A stretch of 64,000 bases of DNA, from the NCBI GenBank assembly GCA_964535025.1, contig CAZHRW010000159.1, positions 14,527 through 78,526 on the forward strand. Reading direction: 5' to 3'. Both the position numbers and the translations under genes were made by a program. Origin of the DNA: an uncultured Planctomycetales bacterium (GTDB taxonomy: Bacteria; Planctomycetota; Phycisphaerae; SM23-33; FEN-1343). Of this stretch, positions 27,590 to 47,437 are shown one piece after another. The number at the start of each line of letters is the position of its first letter. Within the stretch, counting starts at the first letter, position 1. The notes beneath the pieces were generated by a model. That model was not told where the DNA came from. It did not search any database and saw only the letters and a program-made list of their open reading frames with translations.

Positions 27590-30500
27590 ATCTTCCAGGG
27601 ACCTCCGTTCGCCGGCCGGTCATGACGCTCATGGTGTTCCTGGGCGTGATCCTCGTCGGTGCGTTCTGCCTGGTCCAGATGCCCATCGACCTGTTCCCGG
27701 AGATGGACATCCCCTCGATCACCGTGGTGACGCCCTATCCCGGGGCCGGGCCGGAGGAGATCGAGGAGAAGGTCACCCAGCCATTGGAGAAGCGTCTCGC
27801 GACCGTCGAGGACATCAAGCACATCGTCTCGACCTCGCGGGAGGGGATGTCGACGATCCGCCTGCAGTTCGACTGGGAGACCGACCTCGATACCCGCGCC
27901 AACGACGTCCGCGACGCGATCGATATGGCCCAGCAGGAGGTCCCCGACGAGGCCGAGCGATCCCGGATCTTCAAGCTCGACCTGAGCGAGTTCCCCATCC
28001 TCGTCTACGGGGTCTTCGCCGAGGCCTCCTACGAGGACCTCGAGGACATCCTCGACGAGGAGGCGGCCAACCCGCTGGAGGGGATCCCGGGCGTCGGGTC
28101 GGTCCGCGTGATCACCCCGCTGCAGCGGCAGGTCAACGTGGATCTCGACCGCGAGCGGCTCGCCGCCCACGGGCTGGTGGTGGCCGACGTCGCCGGCGCC
28201 GTGGCCCGGGCCAACCGCCAGTCGTCCGCCGGCAGCATCAAGATGGGCGACACCGACTACCTGCCCCGCGTGCCGGCCGAGTTCGAGTCAGTCGAGCCGA
28301 TGAACGACATCGTCGTCCGCGCCGATGACGCCGGGATCGTGCGCCTGGGCGACCTCGGCACCGCCCGGGACGGGTTCAAGGACGTTCAGCTCGACGTCCG
28401 CGTCAACGGCAAGCGCGGGGCGCTGCTGATGGTCCAGAAGCAGTCCAACGCCAACACCGTCGAGGTCGCCCGCGCCGTCGAAGCCAGGCTCGCGCGGATC
28501 CTCGACAGCGGACGACTGCCCGCCGACGTGCAAATCGTCAACGTGATGGACTCCTCCGAGGACATCGAGCGGATGGTCGCCGACCTGGCCCAGACGCTGA
28601 TCATCGGCGGCGTTCTGGCCGTCGCCGCGGTGTTCGTGTTCCTCCGCCAGACCACCGGCACGCTGGTGATCGCCCTGACCATCCCCTTCGCGCTGATCGC
28701 CTCGGGAACGGCGATGTACCTGATGGACTACTCGATCAACATGATGACGCTGTTCGCGCTGATCGTGGCGCTGGGAATGGTGGTCGACAATGCGATCGTC
28801 GTCCTGGAGAACATTGCCCGCCACCGCGAGAGCGGCGAGCGGCTGGCCGAGGCGGCCACCTTCGGCGCCGCCGAGGTGTCCATGGCGATTGTCGCCTCGA
28901 CGATGACGACCCTGTGCATCTTCTTCCCCCTGCTGTTCGTCAAGGGGATCGCCCGGATCATCTTCAAGCCCTTCGCCGTCGTGGCCGCCGTGGTGATGCT
29001 CGCATCGCTGCTGACGGCGCTGACCATGACGCCCATGCTCAGCTCCCGCCTGCTCAAGCGCGGCCGTGACCGCGCGCCGGGCCGTTTCTTCCGGGCCACC
29101 GAGGCCGCCTTCAACGGCATGGCCGACGGCTACGCCTGGCTGCTGGGCTGGTGCCTGCGCCACCGCGCCGTGGTGATCGTGATCGTTCTGGCCGCGTTCG
29201 GCGGCAGCCTCGCGCTGGTGCCCGCGATCGGGTTCGAGTTCATGCCCAAGGAGGACCGCGCCCTGGTTCGGGGAACGATCGAGCTGCCCGTGGGCACCCG
29301 CCTGGAGCGCACGGCCGAGGCGCTGGAGGCGGTCGCGGCCGAGATCGACGCCGCGATCCCCGACGACCAGGTCCGCGCGGTGTTCACGCGGTGCGGGGTC
29401 AGCGAATCGGGGTTCAGCAGCGACGAGGGGACCCACATCGGTTCGTTCGGCGTCAAGCTCGTCCCGCGAGGCCGGCGCGACCGGCACGTCACGGAGATCG
29501 CCGACGACCTGCGCGAGCGGATCGCCCGCATCGCCGGGCGCTGCGGGATCGTGACGTTCCGGTTGGACCTCAACGATCCGATGTCGTCCATGGCCACCGG
29601 CGGCGAACAGCCGGTGAGCGTCAACATCCTCGGCGACGACCTGGACGTCGCCGACGCCTACGCCGCCCGCCTGGCCGGGCAGGTCCGCGAGGTGCCCGGG
29701 ACCGTCGACATCAGCATCTCCCGCGAGAAGGGCGCCCCCGAGGTCTGGGTCGACGTCGACCGCCGGAAGGCCTCGGCGCTGGGGCTGAACGCCTCCGACG
29801 TAACCGAGACGGTTCGCGCCAGCGTGTACGGCACGATCGCCAGCAAGTACCGCGTGCGGGGCGACGAGTACGACATCTTCGTCCGCCTCCGCGAAGCCGA
29901 CCGCGGCCGCCTGGACGACCTGCGCCACCTGCCCCTGCGGCTGCCGACCGGCGAGCTGGTTCGCACCGAACACGTCGCCGAGATCACCCGGCAGCGGGGG
30001 CCGCTGGAGATCGAGCGGAAGGATCAGCGCCGCATCGTCCGCGTCGAAGGCGACGCGCACGGCCGCTCGGTGGGCGAGGTGATCCGCGACGTCCAAGACC
30101 TCGTCCACGCCAGCGACGTGCCGGCCGGCGTCACCGTGACGATGGGCGGGCAGAGCGAGGATATCCGCGAGTCGTTCCTGTGGCTGTCGATCGCCCTGGT
30201 GATCGGGGCGCTGCTGGTCTACATGGTGATGGCCTCGCAGTTCGAATCGCTCATCGACCCGTTCGTCGTCATCTTCTCGGTGCCGGTGGCCTTCCTCGGC
30301 GTGATCTGGTTCCTCTTCCTGCGCGGATACAGCCTGAACATCATCGTCTTCCTCGGCTTGCTGCTGCTGGTGGGCATCGTGGTCAACAATGCCATCGTTC
30401 TGGTCGACTACATCAACATCCTGCGCGCCCGCGGGCGCTCCATGACCGAGGCCGTCCAGGAAGCCGGCCGGACGCGGCTGCGGCCGGTGCTGATGACCGC

Positions 30501-30699
30501 GATTACGACGATCGTCGCTCTGGTGCCGATGGCGTTCAAGCAGGGCCAGGGCTCGGAGGTGTGGAACCCGCTGGGCGCAACGATCATGGGCGGGCTGCTG
30601 GTGTCGACGCTGGTGACGCTGGTGCTGGTCCCCACGTTGTACAGCCTCTTCGAGCGCCGCGTCCGGCGTGGCCCGGAGGCGGAAGGAGCACGGCCGTGA
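27586..30699 (+). CDS. RND efflux transporter permease (AcrB/CzcA superfamily)
   Basis: 1037 aa, 12-TM with two large periplasmic loops. ATGA overlap with the MFP stop. Confidence 0.9.
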   Translation: MNLPGTSVRRPVMTLMVFLGVILVGAFCLVQMPIDLFPEMDIPSITVVTPYPGAGPEEIEEKVTQPLEKRLATVEDIKHIVSTSREGMSTIRLQFDWETDLDTRANDVRDAIDMAQQEVPDEAERSRIFKLDLSEFPILVYGVFAEASYEDLEDILDEEAANPLEGIPGVGSVRVITPLQRQVNVDLDRERLAAHGLVVADVAGAVARANRQSSAGSIKMGDTDYLPRVPAEFESVEPMNDIVVRADDAGIVRLGDLGTARDGFKDVQLDVRVNGKRGALLMVQKQSNANTVEVARAVEARLARILDSGRLPADVQIVNVMDSSEDIERMVADLAQTLIIGGVLAVAAVFVFLRQTTGTLVIALTIPFALIASGTAMYLMDYSINMMTLFALIVALGMVVDNAIVVLENIARHRESGERLAEAATFGAAEVSMAIVASTMTTLCIFFPLLFVKGIARIIFKPFAVVAAVVMLASLLTALTMTPMLSSRLLKRGRDRAPGRFFRATEAAFNGMADGYAWLLGWCLRHRAVVIVIVLAAFGGSLALVPAIGFEFMPKEDRALVRGTIELPVGTRLERTAEALEAVAAEIDAAIPDDQVRAVFTRCGVSESGFSSDEGTHIGSFGVKLVPRGRRDRHVTEIADDLRERIARIAGRCGIVTFRLDLNDPMSSMATGGEQPVSVNILGDDLDVADAYAARLAGQVREVPGTVDISISREKGAPEVWVDVDRRKASALGLNASDVTETVRASVYGTIASKYRVRGDEYDIFVRLREADRGRLDDLRHLPLRLPTGELVRTEHVAEITRQRGPLEIERKDQRRIVRVEGDAHGRSVGEVIRDVQDLVHASDVPAGVTVTMGGQSEDIRESFLWLSIALVIGALLVYMVMASQFESLIDPFVVIFSVPVAFLGVIWFLFLRGYSLNIIVFLGLLLLVGIVVNNAIVLVDYINILRARGRSMTEAVQEAGRTRLRPVLMTAITTIVALVPMAFKQGQGSEVWNPLGATIMGGLLVSTLVTLVLVPTLYSLFERRVRRGPEAEGARP

Positions 30700-31006: not shown

Positions 31007-33328
31007 CTACGGGCCGGCAAAGCAGTGCTTGAGGATGGAGAAGTCGTCGAGGTCGACGTCCCCGTCGCCGTCAAGGTCGCCGTTGGCCTCGGTGGCGCCG
31101 GCCGCCATGCCGAAGTGGCACTTGAGGGTGGCGAAATCGTCGAGGTCGTAGCTGCGCTGGGGCACCTCGAAGGCGCCGATGTCGACCGCCTCGCCCTGGG
31201 GGCGGGCGGTCCCGTCGAGGTCGACGCCGATATCCAGGCCGTAGAGGCTTTCGAACAGGTCCACGTAGGCCTCGAGGCCGGCGCCGGCGTCGATGGCCGG
31301 GCTGGGATCGCTCGCCAGGGCCGGCCGCAGGTCGCCGGCGGCGGGGTCGACAAACCGCGGGTCGGCTTCGAGGTTGGCCCAGGCGTGATCGCCCCAGGCG
31401 GCCTGGAAGGCGTCGACGCCGTGAAGAACCGTGGAAGTCGCCCACTTGATCCGGGCGCTGCCGCCGGGCTGGTGGAACAGGTTGTGGGTGACCTGCGACC
31501 CGGCCGCCACGTCGGCGGAGGTGACGGCAAGGTGATGGGACGGCTCAGCGAGGTTGGCGACGATGTTGTTGTGGATGAACCAGCGCTGGTTGCCGCCGGC
31601 GGGGCTGGCAATGCCGGCGTCGACGTCGTGGATCGTGTTGCCCGCGATATGCACCTGGCCGTTGCCCCACCCGATGATCGCGGCGCCGGGCGACCAGGCG
31701 CTGTCGGGATTGTACTCGCCGCTGACGTGGTGGATGTCGCGGATGACATTGCCGAGGATGTAGGCGGTCACGGCCCCGTTGGAGCGGATGCCGTTCTGGC
31801 TGTTATAGATCTCATTATCGAGGATCCAGACGTTCTCGGGGTCGCCGTGGACCACCACGGCTGTCCCGTCCGAGCCCGAGCCGTTGGGGAAGGTCACCGG
31901 CGCGTAGCCGTACATGACGTTTTCGCTGAGGATCACGTCGCGGCTCTGCTTGACGTCGATGGCGTTCTCGCGGTTGTGGTCGATCAGGTTGCGGCCGACG
32001 TAGATCGAGGTGGCGACGTAAGCGGCGTAGGCGGCATTGTAGTAGAGCTGCACGCCATCCTCGCCGTTGCGGGTCATGCGGTTGTCCACGATCCACACCC
32101 GCCGGCTGTTGCCCTGGGGCGTGATGGCGTGCAGGCCGGTCTCGTCGGTGGGCGCGGGCGTGTTGTCGTGGATGTCATTGTCGTAGAAGACGATGTCGTC
32201 GTTGAAATGCCGCTCGGCGTCCCCGCCGAGGGTGTCGGAGACGGGCAGGACGGCCCACACGGCCCGGAACCCCGTCTCCAGGGGCGCCAGGTTCGTCGCC
32301 TCGCCGTGACGGATCGCCACGTGGTCCGAGGGGTTCAGCACCCGCAGGTAGCCTTCGGCGGTCCCCACGGTGTCGGTCCGGAAGTATTCCAGGACCAGAT
32401 ACGAGCCCCGCACGCGGACCTCGTTGGCGAACACGGCGCGGGCGCCGGGGCCGGCCCCCCGGACGAAGATCGGACGTTCGGCCGTGCCCCGCCCGGTGAT
32501 GCCCAGCCGCGGACCGTGGTAATTGGCGTAGGTGTACGGCCCGCCGTGGACCTCGACGACGCTGCCGGGGGGCAGATCGAGCGGGATCGTCCGACGCGGC
32601 CGATCGGGCGTGCCGAAGGGGTTCCCCGCGTCGGTGGCGTCGCCGTGGGCGTTGTCGATGTAATGGGTGTAGGGTCCGTCGGCGCCGAGGCGGTAGGGCT
32701 TGGGGCCGTCACCGTAGTCGAAGGTGTGTGAGGTGTCGGCGTACATCCAGTGCGTTTCCTCGATGCCGAACGACGGCGCCGGCACGCCGACCGGCGGGAC
32801 CCAGCAGCCGACCCGCTGCACCCGGACCGCATCGGCGACCAGCAGCCCTTCGCCGGTCAGCCGCACCGACAGCGTCTCGCCCCGCACCAGCAGCGGCGCG
32901 CCCAGGTCCTCCCAGGCGGTCTGGGCCTCGGTGAAGTCGTCCGGCGCGCTCCGCTGGTCGACGAGCAGCTCGCCGAGCATGCGGGTCGTCTGGCCGTCGA
33001 GGGGGTTGGCGATCGTGAATCGCGCCGCGGCGGCGCGGTCGGCGGCGGCCGTCCACGACGCCGACACGCGGTAGTGGTAGCCCGGGCACAGACCGGTGAA
33101 CGTCCACGTGGCCTCGGCGCCGGCCGTGCCGGTCGTGCGTGCGTCGCCGTCGTGGCCGGCGGTTTCGATCGTCCAGGCGCCGGTCGTCGTGAAACCCGCG
33201 CCCCCATCGTCGACGATCCGGGGCAGGGTCAGCGGGTCGGCGCTGAGCAGCAGGCGGTGTTCAAGCGTCTCCATCAAGGCACGCGCGCGGGGGCGCGGCC
33301 TGTCGTGGCGTCGGTCGGGCTGCATCAC
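31007..33328 (-). CDS. secreted right-handed parallel beta-helix (pectate-lyase-fold) protein with C-terminal dockerin repeats
   Basis: Repeated GNxIxDxxxGI beta-helix rungs (NVIRDIHHV..., IAGNTIHDVDAGI..., FIHNNIVANL). C-terminal ANGDLDGDGDVDLDDFSILK. N-terminal METLEHRLLLSAD motif. Confidence 0.7.
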   Translation of the reverse strand: MMQPDRRHDRPRPRARALMETLEHRLLLSADPLTLPRIVDDGGAGFTTTGAWTIETAGHDGDARTTGTAGAEATWTFTGLCPGYHYRVSASWTAAADRAAAARFTIANPLDGQTTRMLGELLVDQRSAPDDFTEAQTAWEDLGAPLLVRGETLSVRLTGEGLLVADAVRVQRVGCWVPPVGVPAPSFGIEETHWMYADTSHTFDYGDGPKPYRLGADGPYTHYIDNAHGDATDAGNPFGTPDRPRRTIPLDLPPGSVVEVHGGPYTYANYHGPRLGITGRGTAERPIFVRGAGPGARAVFANEVRVRGSYLVLEYFRTDTVGTAEGYLRVLNPSDHVAIRHGEATNLAPLETGFRAVWAVLPVSDTLGGDAERHFNDDIVFYDNDIHDNTPAPTDETGLHAITPQGNSRRVWIVDNRMTRNGEDGVQLYYNAAYAAYVATSIYVGRNLIDHNRENAIDVKQSRDVILSENVMYGYAPVTFPNGSGSDGTAVVVHGDPENVWILDNEIYNSQNGIRSNGAVTAYILGNVIRDIHHVSGEYNPDSAWSPGAAIIGWGNGQVHIAGNTIHDVDAGIASPAGGNQRWFIHNNIVANLAEPSHHLAVTSADVAAGSQVTHNLFHQPGGSARIKWATSTVLHGVDAFQAAWGDHAWANLEADPRFVDPAAGDLRPALASDPSPAIDAGAGLEAYVDLFESLYGLDIGVDLDGTARPQGEAVDIGAFEVPQRSYDLDDFATLKCHFGMAAGATEANGDLDGDGDVDLDDFSILKHCFAGP

Positions 33329-33511
33329 AGATTTGTCTCACTTATGCTTGGTCGGATTGGCGGGGGGATCCTGATCCGTCGGGTGATGATGAGCGTCCGT
33401 GCTCATAGTGCTTCTATAGCCTCAGTTGGACTTCCCGTCCAGAGAGAAAGTCGGTATACTCACGGGCGAGACTTGAGCCGATGTGTCGGCGGTCACCGTA
33501 GGGAGCCCACC

Positions 33512-34261
33512 ATGCGGGTGAAACTGTTTGACGTCCAGGCCGGTTTCGGCGGCGCCAGGCCGGGCACGCAGGTCGTGCCCGTCGAGGCGCTGACCGACCA
33601 GATGGATCGCCTCCACATCGCCGGGGCGCTGGTGCGGCTTCTCCCGGACGACCTGGACGGCGACGTCGTCCGCTCCAACGCGATGGTCTTTGACGCCCTC
33701 GCGGCCGATACGCGCCTCGTGCCCTGTCCGGTGGTCCTGCCGGCGGCCCTCGGCGACGTACCCGACGAGGCCGAGCAGGTCGACGCCGCCGTCGCCGCCG
33801 GCGCCCGGGCCGTCTGCATCCGCCCGGGGCGGGACTGCTGGACGCTCGAGCCGTGGTGTGCCGCGACGCTCCTGGACGCCCTGCAGCAGCGGCGGCTGCC
33901 CGTCGTGTGCGACCAGGCCCACGTGGCGGCCGACGCCGTCGCCCGCCTGGCCGGGACCTGGGGCGACCTGCCGCTGATCGTCACCGGCGCCGGCTACCGC
34001 CAGATGCGCACGCTCGTTCCGCTGATGCAAACGCACCCGAACATCTTCCTCTCGATCGGCAGCAACCTGACGGTCCATCGCGGCCTCGAGAGCCTGGCCG
34101 CGCGGGTCGGGGCCGATCGCCTGCTGTTCGGCACGGGCTTCCCCGCCGCCGAGGCGATGATGGCCGTGACGCAGTTGATGTACGCCGAGCTGGACGACGC
34201 AGCCAGGCAGCGGATCGGCGCCGGCAACCTCGAACGCCTGATGGGGGAGGTGCGCTCATGA
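33512..34261 (+). CDS. amidohydrolase-2 family (TIM-barrel metal-dependent hydrolase) protein
   Basis: Start MRVKLFDVQAGFGG inside track ORF 32750..34261. ATGA overlap with the downstream paralogue. Confidence 0.55.
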   Translation: MRVKLFDVQAGFGGARPGTQVVPVEALTDQMDRLHIAGALVRLLPDDLDGDVVRSNAMVFDALAADTRLVPCPVVLPAALGDVPDEAEQVDAAVAAGARAVCIRPGRDCWTLEPWCAATLLDALQQRRLPVVCDQAHVAADAVARLAGTWGDLPLIVTGAGYRQMRTLVPLMQTHPNIFLSIGSNLTVHRGLESLAARVGADRLLFGTGFPAAEAMMAVTQLMYAELDDAARQRIGAGNLERLMGEVRS

Positions 34262-35064
34262 CGACCTTGCTTGAACGCGGCCGTCGCGGCGAGCCGCTTG
34301 ACGACCTGGACATCGTGGACGTGCACGGCCACCTGGGCCGTCCGCCGTTCGGCGTGGGCGAGTTGTCGGCGGCGTCGCTGGTCGCCACGATGGATCGTCT
34401 CGGCGTGGCGACGGCCGTGATCAGCCACATCCACTGCCTCTGCGCCGGCGCGAGCGTCGGCAACGACGAGATCCTCGACGCCATGCGCGCCTTCCCGGGG
34501 CGCATTGAAGGCTACGTCCGCCTGTGGCCCAGCAGTGGTGAGGAGGTCCGCCGCGAGGCCGAGCGGTACCTCGACGCGGGGTTCGTGGGCATCAAGCTGC
34601 ACGACGTCACGGGTTTTCGCTACACAGCGCCCGCCTACGCGCCGGCTCTGGCACTGGCCGACCGGCGGCGCATGCCCGTCCTGCTGCACACGTGGGCGAA
34701 GGCGGAGGAGTTCGAGGACGTCGACCGCCTTGCCGCCGCTTATCCCCGCGCGAGCTTCATCCTCGCCCACAGCGGCGTGAGCGATTCGGTCGAGGCGTAC
34801 GGCCGGGTGGCCCGCGAGCACGCCAACGTGTATCTCGACCTGTGCATGAGCCTCACGCCGCCCGGCCACGTCGACCGCCTCGTCGCCGCCGCGGGCCTCG
34901 ACAAGGTCCTCTGGGGCTCCGACGCCACCTTCCTCAACATGGCCCACCAGCTCGGCAAGGTCCTCGGCGCCCGCCTCGACGACGCCGACAAACGCCGTCT
35001 GCTCTCGACCAACGCCCGTCGCCTGCTCGGGCGCATCCGGCGGGACGCAAAGCGCAAGCCTTGA
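34258..35064 (+). CDS. amidohydrolase-2 family protein (paralogue)
   Basis: DIVDVHGHLG...GIKLH...LLHTWAKAEE...ILAHSG metal-ligand pattern of PF04909-type hydrolases. Confidence 0.6.
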   Translation: MTTLLERGRRGEPLDDLDIVDVHGHLGRPPFGVGELSAASLVATMDRLGVATAVISHIHCLCAGASVGNDEILDAMRAFPGRIEGYVRLWPSSGEEVRREAERYLDAGFVGIKLHDVTGFRYTAPAYAPALALADRRRMPVLLHTWAKAEEFEDVDRLAAAYPRASFILAHSGVSDSVEAYGRVAREHANVYLDLCMSLTPPGHVDRLVAAAGLDKVLWGSDATFLNMAHQLGKVLGARLDDADKRRLLSTNARRLLGRIRRDAKRKP

Positions 35065-35082: not shown

Positions 35083-36363
35083 TCACGCAAGCGTCCGCAC
35101 GGCGTCGCGCATGATCCGCGTGATGGGCAGGTGCCGGGGGCAGCGGCGCTCGGCGAGGGCGAAGGTCTCACCGGCGAGGCGGCGGCGGGTCTCGGTCGGC
35201 AGGGCCCTAAACAGCTCGCGGGCGGTGTCGTGGTCGCCGTAATCGTTGTAGTACATCATGTAGCGCATCACGTCGCAGACCGGCAGGCCGTCGCACGCGC
35301 CTTCGCAGATGTCGGCGCAGCCGGCGCAATAGTCGCCGGCGGTCTGGCGGGCGTACTGCTCCATCAGGGCCTTTTCGTCGGCCGACAGTTTGGTCTGGTT
35401 CATGGCCGCGGCGATGTTGGACATCAGGACCGTGAGGCTGGGCATCTGCGAGCAGATCGAGGCGATGGCCTTGTTCTCCCAGATCGCCTTGAGCTTGGCC
35501 TGCTTGTCGGTATAGCCCTTTTGGACGAACTTCCCGGCCAGGGCCAGTTCGGCCTCGCTCTCGGTCTTGACGGGCCCGCCGCCCTGGGTCTTCATGGCGG
35601 TCAGGCCGATGCCGGCCTCGTGGCAGGCGTCGACGGCCCGCTTCATGTCATCGTCGTGCATCAGGCGGAAGTTGTACGTGGTCATGATGCCGTCGATGAA
35701 GCCGGCCTTGGACGCCCTGAGCATCGACGCGGGCATGTTGCGGTGGGTGGAGAACCCGAACAGCTTGATCCGCCCGCGTTTCTTCTCGCGCTCGGCCCAC
35801 TGCTTCCACGTGCGGCCGAACCGCTCGAGCTCCTCCGGGCCGCGGAGCCCGTGGATGAAGTACAGGTCGATGTAGTCGGTGTTCATCCGCTCCAGCGACT
35901 GCTCCAGCAGCCCCGTCATCCCGTCCGGGTCCCGCGCGCCCGACTTGGTCACCAGGAAGATCCGCTTGCGCTGCTTGGGGTTGGCCTTGAAGAACTTGCC
36001 GAACCCCAACTCGCTGTTGCCCCCGCGATAGGAGGCGGCGGTGTCCCAGTAGGTCACGCCGTACTTGAGGGCCTGCTTGAGCGTGAGCTGGTTGTTGACG
36101 ACGTCGAAGATGCCCCCCAGCGCCAGCATCGGCACGACGCGGCCGGTCTTGCCGAACTTGCGTGTCGGCACCGCCGGGGGCGCCGGCTGCGTCGCGGCCG
36201 GTTGGGTCTCGGCGGGTTGGGTGGTCGGCTGGGTGGTCGGCTGAGTGGCTTGCTCACCTCTGGCCAGGCCGGTCGCCGCCAGGAAGGCGCCGGCGCCGGC
36301 CGCGCCGCCGGTGCGGAGAAAATCGCGTCGGTTGAGCTGGTCGTGGTTGGGATCGGTGGTCAT
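35083..36363 (-). CDS. TAT-exported aldo/keto reductase with ATQP-repeat linker and C-terminal Cys-rich (putative Fe-S) motif
   Basis: Start MTTDPNHDQLNRRDFLRTGGAAGAGAFLA (twin-arginine signal). AKR core GVTYWDTAASYRGGNSELGFG...IFLVTK. C-terminal CAGCADICEGACDGLPVC. Confidence 0.75.
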   Translation of the reverse strand: MTTDPNHDQLNRRDFLRTGGAAGAGAFLAATGLARGEQATQPTTQPTTQPAETQPAATQPAPPAVPTRKFGKTGRVVPMLALGGIFDVVNNQLTLKQALKYGVTYWDTAASYRGGNSELGFGKFFKANPKQRKRIFLVTKSGARDPDGMTGLLEQSLERMNTDYIDLYFIHGLRGPEELERFGRTWKQWAEREKKRGRIKLFGFSTHRNMPASMLRASKAGFIDGIMTTYNFRLMHDDDMKRAVDACHEAGIGLTAMKTQGGGPVKTESEAELALAGKFVQKGYTDKQAKLKAIWENKAIASICSQMPSLTVLMSNIAAAMNQTKLSADEKALMEQYARQTAGDYCAGCADICEGACDGLPVCDVMRYMMYYNDYGDHDTARELFRALPTETRRRLAGETFALAERRCPRHLPITRIMRDAVRTLA

Positions 36364-36407
36364 GGGGGGCCTCTCTTGTTCGTTTACACCGAGCCGTCGA
36401 GCTTCTG

Positions 36408-38348
36408 CTACAGCAGCAGCGACCGCTCGCGGCTTCGGGTTTCGTTCTCGGCGGTCACGCGAATCGCTCGTTGGCCGCTGACCGGGCATTCGTGTTCGCA
36501 CACGCCGCACCCGATGCAGCGGGATGGGTCGACGTACGGCCTCTGCAGCCGGATGAGGACCTTCACACGGTCGCCCGGCGAGGGCGGGAAGTCCCATTCG
36601 GTCTGCTCGTCGAGGACGATCGTATCGCTCGTGTGGCGGACGATCCGCCGCCGGACGGGGTCGAAGGCCTCGGCCGGCGCGAGGTAGTAGTCTCCGGTGG
36701 CGTAGCCGCGCCCGCTCAGCGGGGTGCCGGTGAGTGTGACGGCGGCCCCGTCGACCGCCGCGACGGTGAAGACGCCGTCCCGCACAGCCGTGTAGCTTTC
36801 CCGGGTGAAGATCGCCTTGGGGCTGACCGGGCAGTTCTCCTGACAGACCAGGCAGGGGCGGTCCATGGCCCACGGCAGGCACCGGCTGCGATCGACGAAG
36901 GCCGTGCCGATGCGAACCGGCCCGTCATCGGCGTAATCGCCCCGGCCCATCCGCTGATCCAGTGACAGCGGCGCCAACGCGCCGGTGGGGCAGATGTTGC
37001 TGCACGCGACGCAGTTGAACCGGCAGCCACTGGAGCCGATGCGGTTGTTGAGCACCGGCGTCCAGGCCGCCTCGATGCCCTTGTCGAGCCCGGCCGGCTG
37101 CAGGACGTTGGTCGGGCAGACCCGCATGCACTGGCCGCACTTGATGCATCGCTTGAGGAACTCCCCCTCGCCGCGGGCCCCGGGTGGGCGGATCAGTCCG
37201 GGGTTCCAGTTTTCGCCGAGTGTGCCGGCCAGGCGAATCAGCGGCACGGCCGCCAGCCCGCCCAGCAGTGACAGCAGGACCCCACGGCGGGAGACGTCAG
37301 GCGAGGCGACCTGTCCGGCGGCCAGGCGGCCCGTAGTGAAGCCCATCACCCCGTGGGTGCAGTCGTCCAGGCAGTTGCCGCACAGGACGCATTCGCTGGT
37401 GCGGATCTCGCCGCTCGGTTCGCAGGCGCCTTCGCAGCTGCGCTCGCACAGGCGGCAGTGAATGCAATCGCTGTTGCGCTGTCCGATCCGCCAGACGGCG
37501 AAACGGCTGAATACCCCCAGCAGGGCACCCAGCGGGCAGATGAACCGGCAGTAGAACCGCGGCACGATGAGATTCGCCAGCAGGGCGCCGATGAAGATCC
37601 CGCCGATCACCCAGGTGCCCTGGTAATGCCGCGCCACCGGCGAAACCTGCTGCACGCTGTTATCCACGGCGGGCAGCACCGCCAGCGACAGCGAGCGATA
37701 TACCAGCGGGATCGGGTCCAGCAGCCCGGTCTGCAGGCTCGCGGCCCGGCCGGTCCGGTCGGGCAACACCATCGCCGCGACGACCCACACCGCCGCCAGC
37801 GCGAGCACCCACGCCGCCGCCCTGCGCCGGCGCTTGAGCACGCCGCCCAGGGCCAGCACGGCCAGAACCACCAGACCGGCGGCCACCAGGGCCGTCGGCC
37901 ACCGGGGGGCCGATCGGCTCCAACGGATGAGCTGGGCCGCCAACGTCCCCGCGGCGGCCGCCAGCAGGAACGTCAGCACGAGGTACTTGATCGCCTGGGC
38001 GCGGCGGTATCGGTTCGCGTCGATCTGCGCCTTGGCGGGCTTTCGCCGCCGGCCGAGCCAGCCGACGAATTGGTGCATCGTGCCGAACGGACAGACCCAG
38101 CCGCAGAAGACCCGCCCGAAGATGATGGTCACGACGAGGGTCACCAGTGCCAACATCAGCGGGCCGACCAGCACGCCGGTCGCCAGCGCGACGGAGACCG
38201 CCACCAGCGGGTCGGCGGCCAGCAGGGCGTTCACCGGCCAGCCCCGCAGTTGCCACCAGTGCTCGCCCGCGCTGGCGACCACGACAAAGAGCACCAGCAG
38301 AGCGAGGAAGAACACCTGGCTGATCCGTCGTACCGTGACAATCTTCAT
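36408..38348 (-). CDS. membrane polyferredoxin of the NapH/MauN/CcoG type (two CX3CP membrane modules plus about six 4Fe-4S ferredoxin motifs)
   Basis: FCGWVCPFG and YCRFICPLG. CIHCRLCERSC, CVLCGNCLDDC, CIKCGQCMRVCP, CVACSNICP, CLVCQENCP, CIGCGVCEHECP. Multiple TM helices. Confidence 0.8.
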   Translation of the reverse strand: MKIVTVRRISQVFFLALLVLFVVVASAGEHWWQLRGWPVNALLAADPLVAVSVALATGVLVGPLMLALVTLVVTIIFGRVFCGWVCPFGTMHQFVGWLGRRRKPAKAQIDANRYRRAQAIKYLVLTFLLAAAAGTLAAQLIRWSRSAPRWPTALVAAGLVVLAVLALGGVLKRRRRAAAWVLALAAVWVVAAMVLPDRTGRAASLQTGLLDPIPLVYRSLSLAVLPAVDNSVQQVSPVARHYQGTWVIGGIFIGALLANLIVPRFYCRFICPLGALLGVFSRFAVWRIGQRNSDCIHCRLCERSCEGACEPSGEIRTSECVLCGNCLDDCTHGVMGFTTGRLAAGQVASPDVSRRGVLLSLLGGLAAVPLIRLAGTLGENWNPGLIRPPGARGEGEFLKRCIKCGQCMRVCPTNVLQPAGLDKGIEAAWTPVLNNRIGSSGCRFNCVACSNICPTGALAPLSLDQRMGRGDYADDGPVRIGTAFVDRSRCLPWAMDRPCLVCQENCPVSPKAIFTRESYTAVRDGVFTVAAVDGAAVTLTGTPLSGRGYATGDYYLAPAEAFDPVRRRIVRHTSDTIVLDEQTEWDFPPSPGDRVKVLIRLQRPYVDPSRCIGCGVCEHECPVSGQRAIRVTAENETRSRERSLLL

Positions 38349-38359
38349 ACGAATCCCGT

Positions 38360-39355
38360 TCACCCGATCTCCGCGCGATGGAGCTTGATCGACCGCCACG
38401 CCGCGGCCCCGACGCCCGCCCGCTCGGCCTTGGCGAGGTAGGGCAGCTCGCCCGGCGCCAGGTCCAGCAGCGTCGCGGCATACGCGTCGGCCGCCACCTG
38501 GTCGGTCGAGACGATCATGGTGTTGGTCGCTTTGAGGTCGTCCACCGAGCCGCCGGTCGGCCCGTTGGTCATCATCGTCCGCGTGCCGTCGAGCACCACC
38601 AGCGTCGGCCGCACCATCATCGCCAGTTCCTTGATGGTGTTGTGGATGTCCTGGTGCAGGCGGTTGCGCCGCCCGCCCAGCAGGCCGTACCAGTTCTTCA
38701 TGCTCATCGATGCCCCGGCCCGGAAGTGGTTCTTCACCGGCGCGATGCCGATCACCTTGGTTGCGCCGGCCAGCGGCTCATACAGCACCGGCCAGTGGGT
38801 GATGATGCCGCCGTCCGGCAGGGTGTAGGGTCGGAACAGCGCCTCGCGCGGCAGCAAGACCTTGGCGCCGGCCCGCCGGGCGGCCGGACCGATGCCCGAC
38901 AGCTCGAAGCAGCTCACCGGGTCGTTGATCGGGTTGTCCGTCACCACCACCTCGGCCGCGCCCGCCGCCAGGCACAGTCGCACCACCTCGCCCACCAGGT
39001 CGGGATGGGCCGTGGCGCCCAGCGACGGCGGCGTGGCGAACGCGGCGTTGACCTTCACGACGACCCGGTCGCCGCGGCTGACGAACCGCTGGACGCCCCC
39101 CAGGGCCGCCAGGGCCCGACGGACGGTCTTGACGCGGTTGGCACCGGTGACGATGGCCATCTCGCCGCGGGCGTCGGCAATCGAGAAATCCCTCAACGCG
39201 GCGGCGCGGGCCGTGTCGCTGCCCGTGTCGCGTCCGGTCAGCAGGTACCCGCCCGCGGCGACACCGGCGATCGCGGCCCCAGCCTTGGCCGTGCGGGCGA
39301 GGAATGCCCGTCGGCTGCAGTACGGCCCGTCAGGGATGGGTCGGTCCTGGTTCAC
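38360..39355 (-). CDS. DUF362 domain protein with twin-arginine signal
   Basis: GTG start overlaps the upstream stop (GTGA). SRRAFLARTAKAGAAIAG TAT signal. DUF362-like core IVTGANRVKT...VVKVNAAF...VVTDNP. Confidence 0.65.
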   Translation of the reverse strand: MNQDRPIPDGPYCSRRAFLARTAKAGAAIAGVAAGGYLLTGRDTGSDTARAAALRDFSIADARGEMAIVTGANRVKTVRRALAALGGVQRFVSRGDRVVVKVNAAFATPPSLGATAHPDLVGEVVRLCLAAGAAEVVVTDNPINDPVSCFELSGIGPAARRAGAKVLLPREALFRPYTLPDGGIITHWPVLYEPLAGATKVIGIAPVKNHFRAGASMSMKNWYGLLGGRRNRLHQDIHNTIKELAMMVRPTLVVLDGTRTMMTNGPTGGSVDDLKATNTMIVSTDQVAADAYAATLLDLAPGELPYLAKAERAGVGAAAWRSIKLHRAEIG

Positions 39356-40353
39356 TCGGCCTCCGCGGAAAGTGTAGCGTGCAGCCGTCCGATAATCTGC
39401 TCGGCGGTGGGGCGGTCCGGGCATTCGTGAACGCCGGCGACGAACGGGCCGGCCGTGAAGACCATCTCGTAGGTGTCGAAGATCGTCGCCGCCCGCAGCG
39501 ACGCGATGGCCAGGTCCGTCTCGACCGGCTCGGCGCCGTTGGCGATGAAGAACGCATGGAACGCCCGGGCGTCTTCGGCCGCGGCCGCGGCGTCGGCCCG
39601 GCGGGCGAGGAAGGCCGTCACCGTCTGGCCGTTGACGTCATAGCGGGCTGAAAAGACGTCGCGCAGCTCGGCGATCCCGAACACGTTGCGGGCCAGCAGG
39701 GCGACGCTGTCGGCGAGAAGCCCCTCGGAGGGGAACAGCTCGAGCTCGTCGATGCCCGGGCCCGCCTCGAGCGACGCGGCCAAAGCCGCGGCGAACCGCC
39801 GGACCGCCTCGGCCACCGCTTCGGAGGACTCGGACGGGACGATCTCGACATAGTGCCGCCCCCGCGCGAAAAAGACGGCCCCGCCGCTGCGATAGGCGAA
39901 GGGGGTGAACTCCAGAGTCTCGCCGCCGCTTCGCCGTTGCGTACTGAAGACAGAGTACGCCGCGCGGTGGTCGTTCATCCTGTAGAGGTAGACCTCGAAC
40001 CACCCCGGGGCCTCGGCCGGCGTGAACCGCTGGCAGGTGAGGGCCTCGAAGCCGGCATCGGTGTACTGCGGGGCTTTGCCGTTGATCTTGTTGTAGAGCG
40101 TCTCGGCGCCGAATCGCTCGGCCGGCGTGTACGGCCGCGCGATCGCCGGCTCGACCGCGTCGAAGGCCGAGGCGATCTCCTCGCCCCGGCGGTCGGCGGC
40201 GGGCTCTTCGGCCGCGTCGGCGACGGCGTAGATCGACCGGTCGTAATGGAACTGCTTGAAGAAGACCCCCGCGGCGATGCCGACCAGGAGCAACAGGACG
40301 ACTGAGCCGACGAATGTCTCCTTCAGCGACGGCGACCGTTCACCTGGACCCAT
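39352..40353 (-). CDS. hypothetical membrane-anchored (single N-terminal TM) protein, first gene of the redox module
   Basis: ATG at 40353 preceded by GGAGTGGAGGG. TM VVLLLLVGIAAGVFF. Only the 3' 1 kb of the 1738-aa track ORF 39352..44568 is taken as coding. Confidence 0.5.
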   Translation of the reverse strand: MGPGERSPSLKETFVGSVVLLLLVGIAAGVFFKQFHYDRSIYAVADAAEEPAADRRGEEIASAFDAVEPAIARPYTPAERFGAETLYNKINGKAPQYTDAGFEALTCQRFTPAEAPGWFEVYLYRMNDHRAAYSVFSTQRRSGGETLEFTPFAYRSGGAVFFARGRHYVEIVPSESSEAVAEAVRRFAAALAASLEAGPGIDELELFPSEGLLADSVALLARNVFGIAELRDVFSARYDVNGQTVTAFLARRADAAAAAEDARAFHAFFIANGAEPVETDLAIASLRAATIFDTYEMVFTAGPFVAGVHECPDRPTAEQIIGRLHATLSAEAE

Positions 40354-40599
40354 GACGCCCTCCACTCCCCCGACGACCCATGCAACGATATCAGTGTCGT
40401 GAATCGGCCCCGCCATGTCAAGGACGGCCGCGACAGGACGGCCGCGCCGGGCGAATCGGCAAGTGCTTGCCATATCTTCGGCAAAAACGGCTCCGTCTGC
40501 GGCCGAACTGTGCCGCCTTTCGCTGTTTTGACTGGCCAATCCGCCGGTGCGCTGGTATATCCGGGGGCCGTGTTTCTCACCGCGGTTCAAGGAGTCTTT

Positions 40600-44610: not shown

Positions 44611-45927
44611 CTAGCCCGATGAGCCGCGCGTTGAACGCCATTGTTCGTACGCGTCGTGGCTGGCGCGATAGATGTTCACCCAGATCGGGCTTTGCAGGAT
44701 CGGATCGCCCGCCGCTTCGAGCCAGCGCCAGAGACGGTCGTTCAGGTCCGCCTCGACCGCCGCGACGTCCGCGCGGCCGGAGAGGTTGTCGAACTCCAGC
44801 CGGTCGGCGGCGAGGTCGTACAGTTCCGTCACCGGGCAGGTATCGGGTTCCTTCGCCGGGGCGGTGATGTCGACGGGTGTGCGGAACGTCCTGAGGTTGG
44901 AGAAGTTTCGGATGAGTTTGTGCGTGCGCGTTCGCACACAGCGGGCCTCGGGTTGACTGCCGCCCATGAGGTACATTGCGAAGATCGCCTCCCGCGTCGC
45001 CGGCGCCGCGGCATCGCGAAGCAGGGCGGTGAACGGAATGCCGTCCAGGTCATAGGGCGGCGCCATGCCGATCAGGTCCAGCAGCGTCGGCGTCACGTCA
45101 ACATTGGAAATGAGGTGGCCCACCCGTCGCCCGCCGTCCACGCCGCCGGCCGGCCAGCGGACCAGGAAGGCCGTCTCGATGCCGGGATCGTAGAGGTACC
45201 ACTTGGCGCGGGGAAACTCCAACCCGTGATCGACCGTGAAGACGACGAGGGTGTCATCCGTGAGGCCGTTGTCGTCCAGGGCCTTGAGGATGATGCCCAC
45301 CGCGTCGTCCACCTTCCGCACCGCCCCCTGCAACTGGGCGGCGTCCGCCCGCGCGGCCTCGTTATCCACCAGGTACGGCGGCACCGTCACGCCCTTGCTC
45401 GCATCAGGCTTGACGCCGCCGACGTCCCATTTCCGGTGCGTCTCGCCGAACCCGATCTGTGCGTAAAAGGGGCGCTCGTCCGAACTCGCCGTGGCAGCGA
45501 ACGATGCGAAGGCCTCGGCGACCGTGTCGGCCGGGCGGTGAACCCCTTCCTGTTTGGCGTACCACTCCTCGAACGCCAGCCGGTCAATGTCCCACGGCAT
45601 CACCTCGTGCTGATGGTAGAACAGCACCGTCCGGTAGCCCCCGTCGCGCAGGATGTGCGAGAGGTGCCGCACGTCGTCGTGGAAGGTCCAACTGGACGGC
45701 GGATGCGACAGGCCCATCAGCCCGTTGCGCTGCGGCCACAGCCCCGTCATCATCGCCCCGCGGGAGGGCGAACAGACCGGCGACGTGCAGAAGAACTCCT
45801 CCAGCAGCACCCCCTCGGCCGCCAGGCGGTCGATGTTGGGCGTGTGGACCGTCTCCACGCCGTAACAGCCGAAATGACGCCCGGTGTCGTGGGTGGTGAT
45901 ATAGACGATATTCGGTCGCCGGGCCAT
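44611..45927 (-). CDS. sulfatase (formylglycine-dependent arylsulfatase family)
   Basis: PNIVYITTHDTGRH...CTSPVCSPSRGAMMTG, i.e. the C-x-P-x-R FGly motif. Confidence 0.85.
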   Translation of the reverse strand: MARRPNIVYITTHDTGRHFGCYGVETVHTPNIDRLAAEGVLLEEFFCTSPVCSPSRGAMMTGLWPQRNGLMGLSHPPSSWTFHDDVRHLSHILRDGGYRTVLFYHQHEVMPWDIDRLAFEEWYAKQEGVHRPADTVAEAFASFAATASSDERPFYAQIGFGETHRKWDVGGVKPDASKGVTVPPYLVDNEAARADAAQLQGAVRKVDDAVGIILKALDDNGLTDDTLVVFTVDHGLEFPRAKWYLYDPGIETAFLVRWPAGGVDGGRRVGHLISNVDVTPTLLDLIGMAPPYDLDGIPFTALLRDAAAPATREAIFAMYLMGGSQPEARCVRTRTHKLIRNFSNLRTFRTPVDITAPAKEPDTCPVTELYDLAADRLEFDNLSGRADVAAVEADLNDRLWRWLEAAGDPILQSPIWVNIYRASHDAYEQWRSTRGSSG

Positions 45928-45985
45928 GGGCGCCTCCGGTTCGATCAGGCTAAGCTCTTTTCTCTGCGTGGGCTACGGCGCCATT

Positions 45986-47437
45986 CTACCGGGCCGTCGC
46001 CGCCGCGGCGGCCGGACCCGAGGCCGGCGAGGCGGCACGCAGCCGCGCCAGGGCCGCGACCCACGGGCCCGTATCGGGCGCGGCCACCGTCACGATCTCG
46101 CCGCCGGTCACATCCGCACGGCCGCCCCAGTGGCCCGTGGCGGGGTTGATCCACCGCAGGTCGAAGCGGTCGGGATGCTCGTGGAGGTCCAGGCCGACCG
46201 AGCCGCCGCGGGGGAAGTACAGGGCGTAGGCCTGGCCGGGCCTGGCCGCGAGGTAGGCTTCATCGTCCCGGCGATCCGTGAGCAGGTGGTTGGCCGGGTC
46301 AAGGTCCCACAGCTTCATGCAGTACTCGAGCTTGCGGGCGGCCTTGAGGGCGGCGACGCTCGGGGCGGACAGACCCAGCCCGGAGGGAGGGCGGTGGAAC
46401 CGGGCGGCCGCGGCGCCGCCGAGGATATGGCGCCACCAGCGGTTCAGGCCTTCGGCGGTGTCGCCGTACTTGCCGCCGTCGGCGCCGTAGGTCTTGACCG
46501 TGTTCACCGGTCGCGGCCGGTCGGCGATGTGGCTCCGGACCCATTGAAAGTTGTCCCAGTGGGTCTGGCCGCTCTTCTGGTTGTTCTGCGAGACGTCGGC
46601 GAAGTCATAGCGCTCGGGGTGATCGAGCGTGTGCCGGTGCTCCTTGCTTGTAAGGTCCCACGCGTCCCACATTTCGGTGATGCACACCTCGACGCCGGCC
46701 TCGCGGGCCCGCCGGCGGATCCACTCGGCCCAGTAGATTGCCCACTGCGGGTCGCCGGAGGTCTCGTTATCGATGCAGTAGAGCACGTGGTCGTGCTTCA
46801 GTGTGTATGAGAGCATCTTGTCGACGAACCGCTGCTGGTAGGGCAGGACGACGGTGTTGTCACGCTGCTTGGGCGTGGTGTAGAAGAACGGCTGGGCGTT
46901 GCGGCCGGGGTGCTCGGGATACTCCGGGGCCAGGCCGGACGTTTCGTGGGTGTAATTGACATTGTTGGCGGGGTTGAACGGGTCGGCCCGCCAGTGGTCG
47001 CGGGAATGGTCGAAGCGGTCCCACAGCTCGATCTGCACGATGATGCCGCGCTCGTGCGTGAGGCGGAGCATGGTCTCGAAGCGCTGCCAGTACTCAGCGT
47101 TCCACGCGTCGAGATCGTAGGTGCCGTCCGGCCGCCGCGCGAAGGCGTGAATCTCGTAGCCGCGGTCGTTCCGGTCGCTCATGGTGTTGCGGATGTAGTT
47201 GGCCCCGGCGGCGGCCATGGCGTCGAGGTGGGCTTCGAGGTCGGGTATCTGGAAGAGGTTGTCGTCGTCGCTGGCGCCAAGCAGCAGGACCGGCCTGCCG
47301 CGGTATTGCCAGTAGCGCGGGTTGGCGTCCCAGGGGCGGATGCGGTCGCCGGCCCGCCTGTCCGGGTCCGACGGCGCGGCGGCCAGACTGATTGTCAACA
47401 CGAGGAGGAGGGACGGAAGCATGACAGTGTAATGCAT
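45986..47437 (-). CDS. secreted clan GH-A TIM-barrel glycoside hydrolase (GH5/DUF4038-like)
   Basis: Signal peptide. IDNETSGD (acid/base NE) and CITEMWD (nucleophile TE) in the expected beta-strand 4/7 spacing. Confidence 0.6.

Follow-up and report, generated by a model that had tools for sequence, protein, structure and literature searches.

A widespread polyferredoxin-DUF362 gene pair at the core of a predicted extracytoplasmic redox operon in a planctomycete

Four tightly packed genes, here called A to D, occupy the minus strand near the middle of the window (the whole stretch of 64,000 nucleotides that was analysed), raising the question of what kind of redox system they encode and which of the products acts as its enzyme. 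The first-pass annotation had proposed a quinol-to-periplasm electron chain feeding a periplasmic carbonyl reductase, and did not recognise the arrangement as a described system; indeed, we found no literature description of the four-gene module. The genes and the region upstream of them are as follows.

39352..40353, minus strand: gene A, DUF6599 protein, 333 aa
38360..39355, minus strand: gene B, Tat-signal DUF362 protein, 331 aa, GTG start
36408..38348, minus strand: gene C, polytopic polyferredoxin of the PFD family (NapH-NapG fusion), 646 aa
35083..36363, minus strand: gene D, Tat-signal aldo/keto reductase (AKR) with a C-terminal Cys domain, 426 aa
40354..40599, no strand: A-carB divergent intergenic region, presumed promoter region (from JGI gene calls)

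The four co-directional genes are tightly coupled and form a real operon, and JGI gene calling, done independently on the source contig, gave the same four products. A and B overlap by a GTGA (39352-39355) with GGAGG ahead of it, and this start/stop overlap is kept across orthologous loci. The gaps are 11 nt between B and C and 44 nt between C and D; the coupling stands as first annotated, except that the B/C gap had been given as 12 nt. In the A-carB intergenic region, a palindrome lies at 40458-40471, and a search of 40354..40599 for a consensus sigma-70 site found none.

The arrangement is not confined to this genome. Of 48 informative loci (those with enough flank) from Desulfobacterota, Planctomycetota and Verrucomicrobiota, 39 have A-B-C-D in identical order and strand, which is far beyond chance. 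Look-ups anchored on B returned the same four genes, and no further neighbour beyond these four is conserved across the A-B-C-D loci. The reading that the four are mere neighbours with no functional coupling is effectively refuted by these synteny data: it is hard to square with the same order and strand across phyla, with junctions that are overlapping or very short, or with distant loci in which the same four families recur, recombined in other gene orders. Dependence on all four products in strict stoichiometry is also not indicated, since C and/or D is missing beside A-B in 9 of the 48 loci. Five A-B-C loci have no adjacent D, and D is duplicated in several others. Around individual modules, we observed an adjacent tatC in 11 planctomycete loci, AhpC- and DsbA-like genes preceding the module in one verrucomicrobial locus, and a sigma-54 two-component system upstream in one locus.

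Beyond the four-gene form, a Tat-DUF362 gene adjoined the distant PFD gene in all five genomes inspected, and among 49 metagenomic PFD loci a DUF362 neighbour was clear in 40 and weak in 7. Because distant PFD genes nearly always lie beside a Tat-DUF362 gene, and usually without A and D, the conserved core is B plus C and not the reductase. This pair is very widespread among anaerobes and is common in Desulfobacterota, Nitrospirota and the Planctomycetota/Verrucomicrobiota group. Desulfurivibrio alkaliphilus is a cultured carrier of the core pair; Desulforhabdus sp. TSK and Desulfoferrobacter suflitae are cultured carriers of the four-gene form.

By its sequence, C belongs over its full length to the PFD family of NapH-NapG fusions. 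It aligned end to end with four core PFDs at 40-43% identity with all Cys invariant, and by BLASTP with the membrane region of Q1NSB0, the PFD of delta proteobacterium MLMS-1, at 29% identity (E = 2e-25) with RR-TMD5 aligned. Fer4_5, several Fer4 models, MauM and CcoG were matched, as were NapH and NapG below threshold; C is neither NapH proper (TIGR02163, 77 bits against a cut-off of 213) nor NapG proper (NF007012, 75 bits against 269), and no nap genes lie in the neighbourhood of the module. Its features are listed below.

38088..38105, minus strand: first CX3CP motif (CGWVCP); C82 and C86 invariant in 52 orthologues
37533..37550, minus strand: second CX3CP motif (CRFICP); C267 and C271 invariant
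37359..37466, minus strand: ferredoxin-type Cys region, predicted cytoplasmic; nine Cys, C295-C330, all invariant
37233..37289, minus strand: internal twin-arginine plus TMD5, RRGVLLSLLGGLAAVPLIR, predicted Tat-dependent last helix; R354, R355 and R372 invariant
36411..37196, minus strand: NapG-like domain, predicted periplasmic; four [4Fe-4S] motifs, C401-411, C442-453, C490-506 and C611-621
36561..36779, minus strand: insert of ~73 aa that separates periplasmic cluster motifs 3 and 4, typical of A-B-C-D-type PFD

The annotated 646-aa membrane protein with two CX3CP modules and about six ferredoxin Cys motifs is thus borne out: the protein has six ferredoxin-type groups, and all 29 of its Cys are invariant in 52 orthologues, including the 16 in CxxCxxCxxxC-type groups of the NapG-like domain. 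These motifs fit about three Fe-S clusters in the cytoplasm and four in the periplasm, the nine-Cys region being placed on the cytoplasmic side by analogy with NapH/PFD topology (PMC5449189). Full-length homology links C to Q1NSB0, and both have five core TM helices, two CX3CP motifs, Cys clusters on the cytoplasmic side, a last helix that follows immediately on a twin-arginine and is itself followed by a positive charge (R372 in C), four periplasmic [4Fe-4S] motifs and a C-terminal ...ESRS..LLL ending. C is ~100 aa longer, and has the ~73-aa insert and a hydrophobic insert specific to the window copy. Motifs 3 and 4 are 97-107 aa apart in 51 of 52 A-B-C-D-type orthologues and 152 in the other, versus 32 in core PFDs; other PFDs carry different inserts at this same site. 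TMD5 of C is less hydrophobic than TMD1 (Kyte-Doolittle peak 1.9 versus 2.6-2.7). In Q1NSB0, reporter fusions demonstrated Tat-dependent export of the C-terminal domain (Tooke et al., 2017, eLife, PMC5449189), and joint Sec and Tat insertion has thereby been shown experimentally for this member of the PFD family, from which we predict that the four [4Fe-4S] clusters of C's NapG-like domain lie in the periplasm. That study is confined to membrane insertion, gives the PFD neither a partner nor a function, and does not use the term DUF362. Like NapGH of E. coli and Wolinella, a quinol dehydrogenase that sends electrons outward from the quinone pool to a periplasmic enzyme (PMC5449189), C has a NapH-type membrane module and a NapG-type Tat-exported tetra-cluster ferredoxin module. 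Unlike in NapGH, both are in one polypeptide, and the partners here are DUF362, AKR and DUF6599 proteins where NapGH has NapC/NapAB.

B, the constant partner of C, matched DUF362 (PF04015) with 140 bits against a cut-off of 24, over positions 1-199 of the 200-position model. Two of its features bear on its location and chemistry.

39263..39316, minus strand: twin-arginine signal SRRAFLARTAKAGAAIAG; R15 and R16 invariant in 68 orthologues and five distant PFD-linked DUF362 proteins
38651..38734, minus strand: conserved loop K208-x-H210-x9-K220-N221...H234-Q235, candidate cofactor or active-site loop

The twin-arginine string that was first annotated in B is present (SRRAFL), with the RR invariant in 68/68 orthologues, of which 13 of 30 matched TIGR01409 at E <= 0.1; the window's own signal falls under the HMM cut-off (10.3 versus 16.7 bits). 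The structural model of B has the fold of LarA, the nickel-pincer racemase, at a moderate pLDDT of 74.6 that is lowest exactly in the conserved loops. B is not a member of DUF2088, the LarA N-domain family: it matches DUF362, and only the clan is shared. No recognisable redox cofactor motif was found in B. Its loop is invariant across both DUF362 subfamilies and is also present in a cytoplasmic DUF362-ferredoxin fusion, and the spacing of the invariant H210-x9-K220-x13-H234 resembles that of H174-x9-K184-x15-H200 in LarA, in which Lys184, His200 and Arg75 bind the NPN cofactor and His108 and His174 are catalytic (PMC11770544). This spacing suggests that the loop may be equivalent to LarA H174/K184/H200; hhalign and hmmsearch did not detect a B/LarA alignment, and clear counterparts of R75 and H108 were not apparent. 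LarA has 424 aa versus 331 aa in B including the Tat signal, and since B is ~140 aa shorter, part of the LarA structure is probably absent from it. B also differs from LarA in its predicted Tat export and in its genetic tie to Fe-S carriers. Elsewhere, the DUF362 domain is fused to a 2x[4Fe-4S] ferredoxin, indicating that DUF362 has repeatedly been wired to Fe-S carriers. A retrieval for B's subfamily alone yielded more than 5,600 cluster representatives.

The LarA fold raises the idea that B is a redox-neutral LarA-type racemase or epimerase of a periplasmic or envelope 2-hydroxy acid or sugar, with the PFD only resetting or activating the redox state of its cofactor. That LarA enzymes keep a hydride for a short time and can become stuck in the wrong redox state (PMC11770544) speaks for it. 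A seven-cluster membrane protein is, however, a large investment for occasional repair, the second catalytic His of LarA has no clear counterpart in B, and the repeated fusion and linkage of DUF362 to Fe-S carriers suggests net electron transfer; we consider this idea very improbable.

D, the protein first cast as the terminal enzyme, matched Aldo_ket_red (PF00248; 86.6 bits, cut-off 24), TAT_signal (25.8 bits, cut-off 22.7) and TIGR01409 (18 bits, cut-off 16.7), so that its annotated twin-arginine signal is upheld by both signal models.

36274..36333, minus strand: twin-arginine signal NRRDFLRTGGAAGAGAFLAA; RR in 46/46 sequences
35137..35328, minus strand: tail C346-x2-C349-x3-C353...C408-Pro, predicted single [4Fe-4S] site, from Cys conservation

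As in the AKR superfamily, D has an (alpha/beta)8 domain with an Asp-Tyr-Lys-His tetrad (Asp107/Tyr112/Lys140/His171), complete in 46/46 sequences; the best relatives with solved structures are 9yeb, 2,5-diketogluconate reductases and L-galactose dehydrogenases. The NAD(P)H motif region is kept (SICSQMP...SN), but the Lys/Arg residues that bind the 2'-phosphate in classical AKRs are not evident in the sequence. Unlike usual AKRs, D carries a Tat signal, which would take it to a compartment without free NAD(P)H, and its C-terminal helical domain contains one CX2CX3C...CP site; AKR-like proteins with an Fe-S tail, those of COG1453, offer a comparison. The CX2CX3CX3CX5C cluster reported at the end of D is present (C346, C349, C353, C357, C363), but only CX2CX3C and a distal Cys-Pro are conserved: C346 and C408 occur in 46/46 sequences and C349 and C353 in 45/46, whereas C357 and C363 are unique to the window copy (0/45 orthologues). 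Two further conserved Cys lie within the barrel. The tail gave no Pfam Fer4 match even at E = 10, and its resemblance to Fe-S segments of CdhA and SdhB is weak and not significant; from the conserved Cys we infer an Fe-S site. The Zymomonas glucose-fructose oxidoreductase (GFOR), which is Tat-exported and takes its nicotinamide cofactor, tightly bound, to the periplasm, is a precedent for D working outside the cytoplasm, and in MsrPQ a membrane redox protein supplies a Tat-exported periplasmic enzyme. Both involve other protein families and cofactors and have no sequence relationship to the module.

Is D then the end point of the chain, with a NapH-like protein oxidising menaquinol, electrons passing outward to the AKR as terminal periplasmic carbonyl reductase, and the DUF362 and DUF6599 proteins as accessories? 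The complete tetrad, a conserved Cys site in a good position to accept electrons, the duplication of D in several loci, as expected of a specificity-determining subunit, and the outward electron flow of the NapGH quinol dehydrogenase (PMC5449189) all speak for it. In most lineages, however, PFD and DUF362 occur without any AKR, so the reductase cannot be the conduit's reason to exist, and an adjacent D is absent from the five A-B-C loci. Menaquinol (about -75 mV) is thermodynamically ill suited to reducing aldehydes or ketones (about -200 mV), and an AKR has no known route for taking single electrons. We therefore regard this as an unlikely account; the original proposal is supported in part, with the AKR no longer at its core.

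A matched DUF6599 (PF20244) with 153 bits against a Pfam gathering score of 27; no literature on DUF6599 was found.

40249-40317, minus strand: N-terminal TM helix of A, residues ~13-35

This helix agrees with the annotation of A as membrane-anchored. It is followed by two tandem alpha/beta domains (residues ~70-333) with PsbP/PknH-sensor-like folds. Membrane-anchored, translationally coupled to B and lineage-specific, A may be a scaffold or ligand-binding subunit.

Together, these data lead us to propose, with moderate confidence, that the products of the four genes make up a single Fe-S oxidoreductase complex, membrane-bound and extracytoplasmic, in which C is the conduit, B the likeliest catalyst, and D and A lineage-specific additions. 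The complex would be assembled through both Sec and Tat. The NapH-like half of C would sit in the membrane with its Cys motifs on the cytoplasmic side, and the fifth helix, with RR ahead of it, would pass the NapG-like half and its four [4Fe-4S] clusters on to Tat for export. The Tat-exported, LarA-fold B is the most likely catalytic subunit because it is the evolutionarily constant PFD partner; D, with its intact tetrad and one predicted [4Fe-4S] cluster, could be a lineage-specific second catalytic or electron-entry subunit. B and D both come from superfamilies whose enzymes transfer hydride at C-OH/C=O centres, which makes a hydroxy or carbonyl compound of the periplasm the probable substrate: a sugar, sugar acid, 2-hydroxy acid or aldehyde. 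Between this substrate and either the menaquinone pool or a donor in the cytoplasm, electrons would run in one direction or the other over up to eight Fe-S clusters. Exchange between a hydride enzyme and single-electron Fe-S centres without a flavin counts against the complex.

A more specific and rather unlikely version would have DUF362 proteins carry a hydride-accepting NPN-type cofactor, inserted in the cytoplasm, on the His-x9-Lys...His loop, making PFD-DUF362 an Fe-S-wired branch of the LarA superfamily. Cytoplasmic insertion would explain why a DUF362 protein without a known cofactor motif is exported by Tat. Hydride chemistry on periplasmic hydroxy acids or sugars would then become single-electron flow to the quinone pool with no flavin, and the AKR-[4Fe-4S] subunit of the four-gene version would widen the substrate range.

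The same architecture could instead belong to a periplasmic maintenance system, like MsrPQ or the cupric reductase CcoG, serving envelope repair or metal-ion reduction and not catabolism or respiration. The NapH/CcoG/NosR family includes non-respiratory reductases, and C matches CcoG. Wide occurrence of the core pair among anaerobes, the AhpC- and DsbA-like genes ahead of the one verrucomicrobial locus, and the parallel with MsrPQ that Tooke et al. draw for dual-targeted fusions (PMC5449189) would fit. Against this, stress and repair genes are not consistently linked across loci, B and D resemble small-molecule enzymes, and the sigma-54 two-component system upstream of one locus suggests substrate-type regulation. 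We hold a maintenance role to be improbable.

DUF362 is a large orphan family, and the PFD has so far been only a model of Sec/Tat co-operation, without an assigned partner or function. Taken with the LarA fold, the near-universal pairing of PFD with Tat-DUF362 puts DUF362, DUF6599 and PFD into a concrete, testable context as parts of a proposed periplasm-facing redox enzyme. If the proposed complex feeds or drains the menaquinone pool, anaerobic respiratory chains would have an entry or exit point that has gone unrecognised; if an NPN-like cofactor is present, nickel-pincer chemistry would extend to net redox catalysis outside the cytoplasm.

The first-pass annotation had placed four contiguous genes on the minus strand, and this placement proved exact; independent JGI gene calls on the source contig, a metagenome contig of 131.5 kb (3300001533 MLSed_10000151), gave the same four products:

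39352-40353, minus strand: gene A, membrane-anchored DUF6599 protein, 333 aa
38360-39355, minus strand: gene B, DUF362 protein, 331 aa, GTG start
36408-38348, minus strand: gene C, polyferredoxin, 646 aa
35083-36363, minus strand: gene D, aldo/keto reductase (AKR), 426 aa

A is translationally coupled to B; the stop of A and the start of B share the sequence GTGA with GGAGG upstream. The C-D gap was 44 nt as described, while the B-C gap was 11 nt rather than 12 nt. Searches with Pfam and NCBIfam models supported the family assignments, returning DUF6599, DUF362, Fer4_5 plus many Fer4 models, and Aldo_ket_red; the NapH and NapG matches of C were sub-threshold, and the Tat signal of D scored above the cut-off. 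In the JGI calls the flanking genes were carB, which is divergent, and two Amidohydro_2 genes, which are convergent.

The two Amidohydro_2 genes (33300-35064, convergent to D) encode cytoplasmic proteins, and beyond carB/hisF are a sulfatase and a DUF6298 gene (44611-47437), after which the JGI annotation of the contig has an MR_MLE gene. The surroundings hint at sugar-acid or sulfated-glycan metabolism, but this neighborhood was not conserved in other genomes. An RND efflux operon (OEP/HlyD/AcrB-type, 24861-30699) and a 1,668-aa CotH/lamin-tail/dockerin-domain protein (9912-14918) were unrelated to the module, and the rest of the window held ordinary housekeeping and envelope genes without a conserved link to it.

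A DUF6599 alignment search of GTDB species genomes gave more than 569 relatives, and the best 80 loci were taken for tblastn with the four window proteins; the informative loci, in which 6.5 kb or more follow A, numbered 48. A-B-C-D occurred in the same order and strand in 39 of the 48, with A-B-C in five, A-B in two and A alone in two. Co-occurrence in this genome only, which the first-pass annotation had named as grounds against the module, is therefore clearly contradicted. The loci came from Desulfobacterota, Planctomycetota and Verrucomicrobiota; identity to the window proteins was 50-60% for B, C and D and about 38% for A, and the median A-B gap was -4 nt. Look-ups anchored on B homologs recovered the same four genes. 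All-against-all clustering of flanking ORFs produced no further conserved operon gene, the clusters being antisense shadows and lineage-specific tatC, rhomboid, thiL/thiD, aldehyde dehydrogenase and dnaK genes. Divergent tatC (PF00902, E = 6e-63) lay about 1.3 kb upstream of A on the opposite strand in 11 Planctomycetota loci (L016, L017, L020, L029, L032, L038, L045, L050, L071, L072 and L073), whereas the window has carB at this position.

Scans for sigma-70 promoters and terminators gave nothing beyond shuffles. About 105 nt upstream of A lies a perfect palindrome, GGCAAG-CA-CTTGCC (40458-40471), which may be a regulator site and resembles a sigma-54 -24/-12 element with spacing one base short. 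Immediately upstream of the module, one genome (locus L083, 6287-8510) carries a HisKA kinase and sigma-54 activator pair, and a verrucomicrobial locus (L085, 7476-8772) carries AhpC/TSA, DsbA-like and DUF2630 genes; both are lineage-specific hints of regulation or redox context. The NtrC-type regulator in L083 and the TGGCA...TTGC-like palindrome raised the possibility of sigma-54 control, which we rejected: none of 71 loci had a GG-N10-GC site within 300 nt upstream of A, and the spacing of the window palindrome is wrong.

The polyferredoxin C contains 29 cysteines, all invariant in 52 orthologs, arranged as two CX3CP modules, as the first-pass annotation had described, a nine-Cys block and, beyond residue 400, four CxxCxxCxxxC-type groups. 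Between the Cys blocks, the invariant pair R354-R355 is followed by a helix of moderate hydrophobicity, after which comes R372. This layout is that of the PFD family, NapH-NapG fusions with five TM helices and Fe-S clusters partly on the cytoplasmic side and four outside; in reporter fusions of the member Q1NSB0 from delta proteobacterium MLMS-1, the last helix and the downstream part were Tat-translocated in an RR-dependent manner (Tooke et al., eLife 2017, PMC5449189). The membrane region of Q1NSB0 (sequence from the PMC5449189 supplement) shares 29% identity with C (E = 2e-25), and the RR-TMD5 segments of the two coincide in the alignment. Full-length relatives of Q1NSB0 were 40-43% identical to C from one end to the other and kept all Cys, the RR and the C-terminal motif without exception. 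Because of these two matches, we assign C, from its sequence, to the PFD family.

C differs from other PFDs by an insert of about 73 aa between periplasmic clusters 3 and 4 that is typical of the A-B-C-D type: in most core PFDs (the distant relatives) the two cluster motifs are 32 aa apart, against about 104 aa in the A-B-C-D type. Other metagenomic variants (among loci L112, L115, L125, L126, L129 and L142) had spacings of 86 or about 200 aa, and this site is an insertion hot spot. The idea that A or D docks on the insert lost support with locus L121, which has distant A- and D-like genes and a PFD without the insert. In its NapH-like half, the window copy of C also has its own hydrophobic insert of about 60 aa (37749-37931) between TM helices, with two predicted helices and an RRRR loop, absent from orthologs and core PFDs.

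The main new result is a conserved core of DUF362 and PFD. Five Q1NSB0-type PFDs were examined in context (Desulfurivibrio alkaliphilus, Nitrospiraceae, Dissulfurispiraceae and two metagenomic contigs), and all five had a DUF362 gene of about 300 aa upstream on the same strand. In two it adjoins or overlaps the PFD gene, in the other three further genes are inserted between them, and DUF6599 and AKR were absent from all five. All five of these DUF362 proteins started with M(D/K)RRxFL. A scan of metagenomes that started from core-type PFDs gave 49 loci flanked by 1 kb or more on each side; DUF362 was upstream on the same strand in 36 and immediately downstream in four, and seven of the remaining nine showed a weaker DUF362-like match downstream. 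An N-terminal RR motif was present in about 57-60 of 62 partner proteins. In a few distant loci, members of the four families recur in rearranged orders (B-C-A'-D' with D' reversed, C-B-D', C-D' and A'-B-C, among L121, L165, L126 and L112), suggesting that the association is functional and not merely inherited synteny. Locus L012 encodes, between its B and C genes, a cytoplasmic DUF362 paralog (12534-13601, minus strand) that lacks a signal peptide and has a 2x[4Fe-4S] ferredoxin fused at its C-terminal end; its K-x-H...K-N...H loop is retained, but the two Cys invariant in periplasmic B are not. From the pairing, the rearranged orders and this fusion, DUF362 emerges as a recurrent partner of Fe-S carriers, and the core consists of PFD and DUF362, to which AKR and DUF6599 have been added.

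For the Tat signal proposed for B, the RR is invariant in orthologs; the window copy falls below the Tat HMM cut-off, but 13 of 30 orthologs match the model. The two DUF362 subfamilies share a set of invariant residues that includes K101, N103, D140, N144, K208, H210, K220-N221, H234-Q235, D256 and N264-G-P. The structure model of B has the fold of LarA, the nickel-pincer (NPN) lactate racemase, in which K184, H200 and R75 hold the cofactor and H108 and H174 are catalytic (PMC11770544). In the LarA sequence, checked against 5HUQ, H174-x9-K184-x15-H200 follows a beta strand, compared with H210-x9-K220-x13-H234 after a beta strand in B. This spacing is suggestive of counterparts, a correspondence we infer only, because DUF362 profiles scored nothing above shuffled controls against LarA in hhalign and hmmsearch. 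Single-sequence and profile searches for solved-structure relatives of A and B found only signal-peptide or TM look-alikes.

The Tat signal of D passed both models, with the RR in 46 of 46 sequences, and the AKR tetrad D107/Y112/K140/H171 was equally complete (46/46); the closest solved relatives are ordinary AKRs. The Cys cluster noted in the tail held for C346, C349, C353 and C408-Pro, which are conserved, but C357 and C363 occur in the window only. The tail reads as a putative degenerate helical ferredoxin keeping one cluster; Pfam gave no Fe-S model in the tail alone, and its profile had only non-significant matches to PDB sequences. Two further barrel cysteines, C247 (35623-35625) and C304 (35452-35454), conserved in 44 of 46, are candidates for a disulfide or an extra metal ligand. 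The window copy carries a Thr/Gln/Pro repeat linker, QATQPTTQPTTQPAETQPAATQPAP (36178-36252), between Tat signal and barrel that orthologs lack. Eight loci (L037, L046, L047, L053, L057, L064, L071 and L072) have two copies of D, in tandem in seven and on opposite strands in L037.

The best-supported reading is that the module proteins would form a Sec/Tat-assembled, periplasm-facing oxidoreductase, with the PFD as the conduit for electrons across or along the membrane and the DUF362 protein, of LarA fold, as its constant catalytic partner. The additions of this lineage would be the AKR, with a single predicted [4Fe-4S] cluster, and the membrane-anchored A, in a binding or scaffold role. A periplasmic hydroxy or carbonyl compound is suggested as substrate by the fact that B and D both come from superfamilies that transfer hydride at C-OH/C=O centers. 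The first-pass annotation had electrons flowing from quinol to a periplasmic carbonyl reductase. In NapGH quinol electrons do go outward, but by standard potentials menaquinol would donate poorly to the reduction of a carbonyl. It is at least equally plausible that a hydroxy compound is oxidized and its electrons pass to menaquinone, or that a low-potential donor in the cytoplasm supplies them through the clusters on that side.

The general design is similar to NapGH, C belongs to the described PFD family, and B, D and A are members of known Pfam families or superfamilies. In the literature searched, none of the papers mentioning DUF362 dealt with a PFD link, DUF6599 was absent, and no functional description of DUF362, DUF6599, COG2006/COG1453, Npun_F2552 or NPN in the periplasm was found. 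What appears to be new is the pairing of PFD with Tat-DUF362 and its four-gene elaboration; the general kind of system, in which periplasmic subunits exported by Tat go with an Fe-S conduit in the membrane, is known. More speculatively, a nickel-pincer-type cofactor in B could be what couples hydride chemistry to one-electron carriers without a flavin and, if true, would at the same time give a reason why B has to be exported by Tat.
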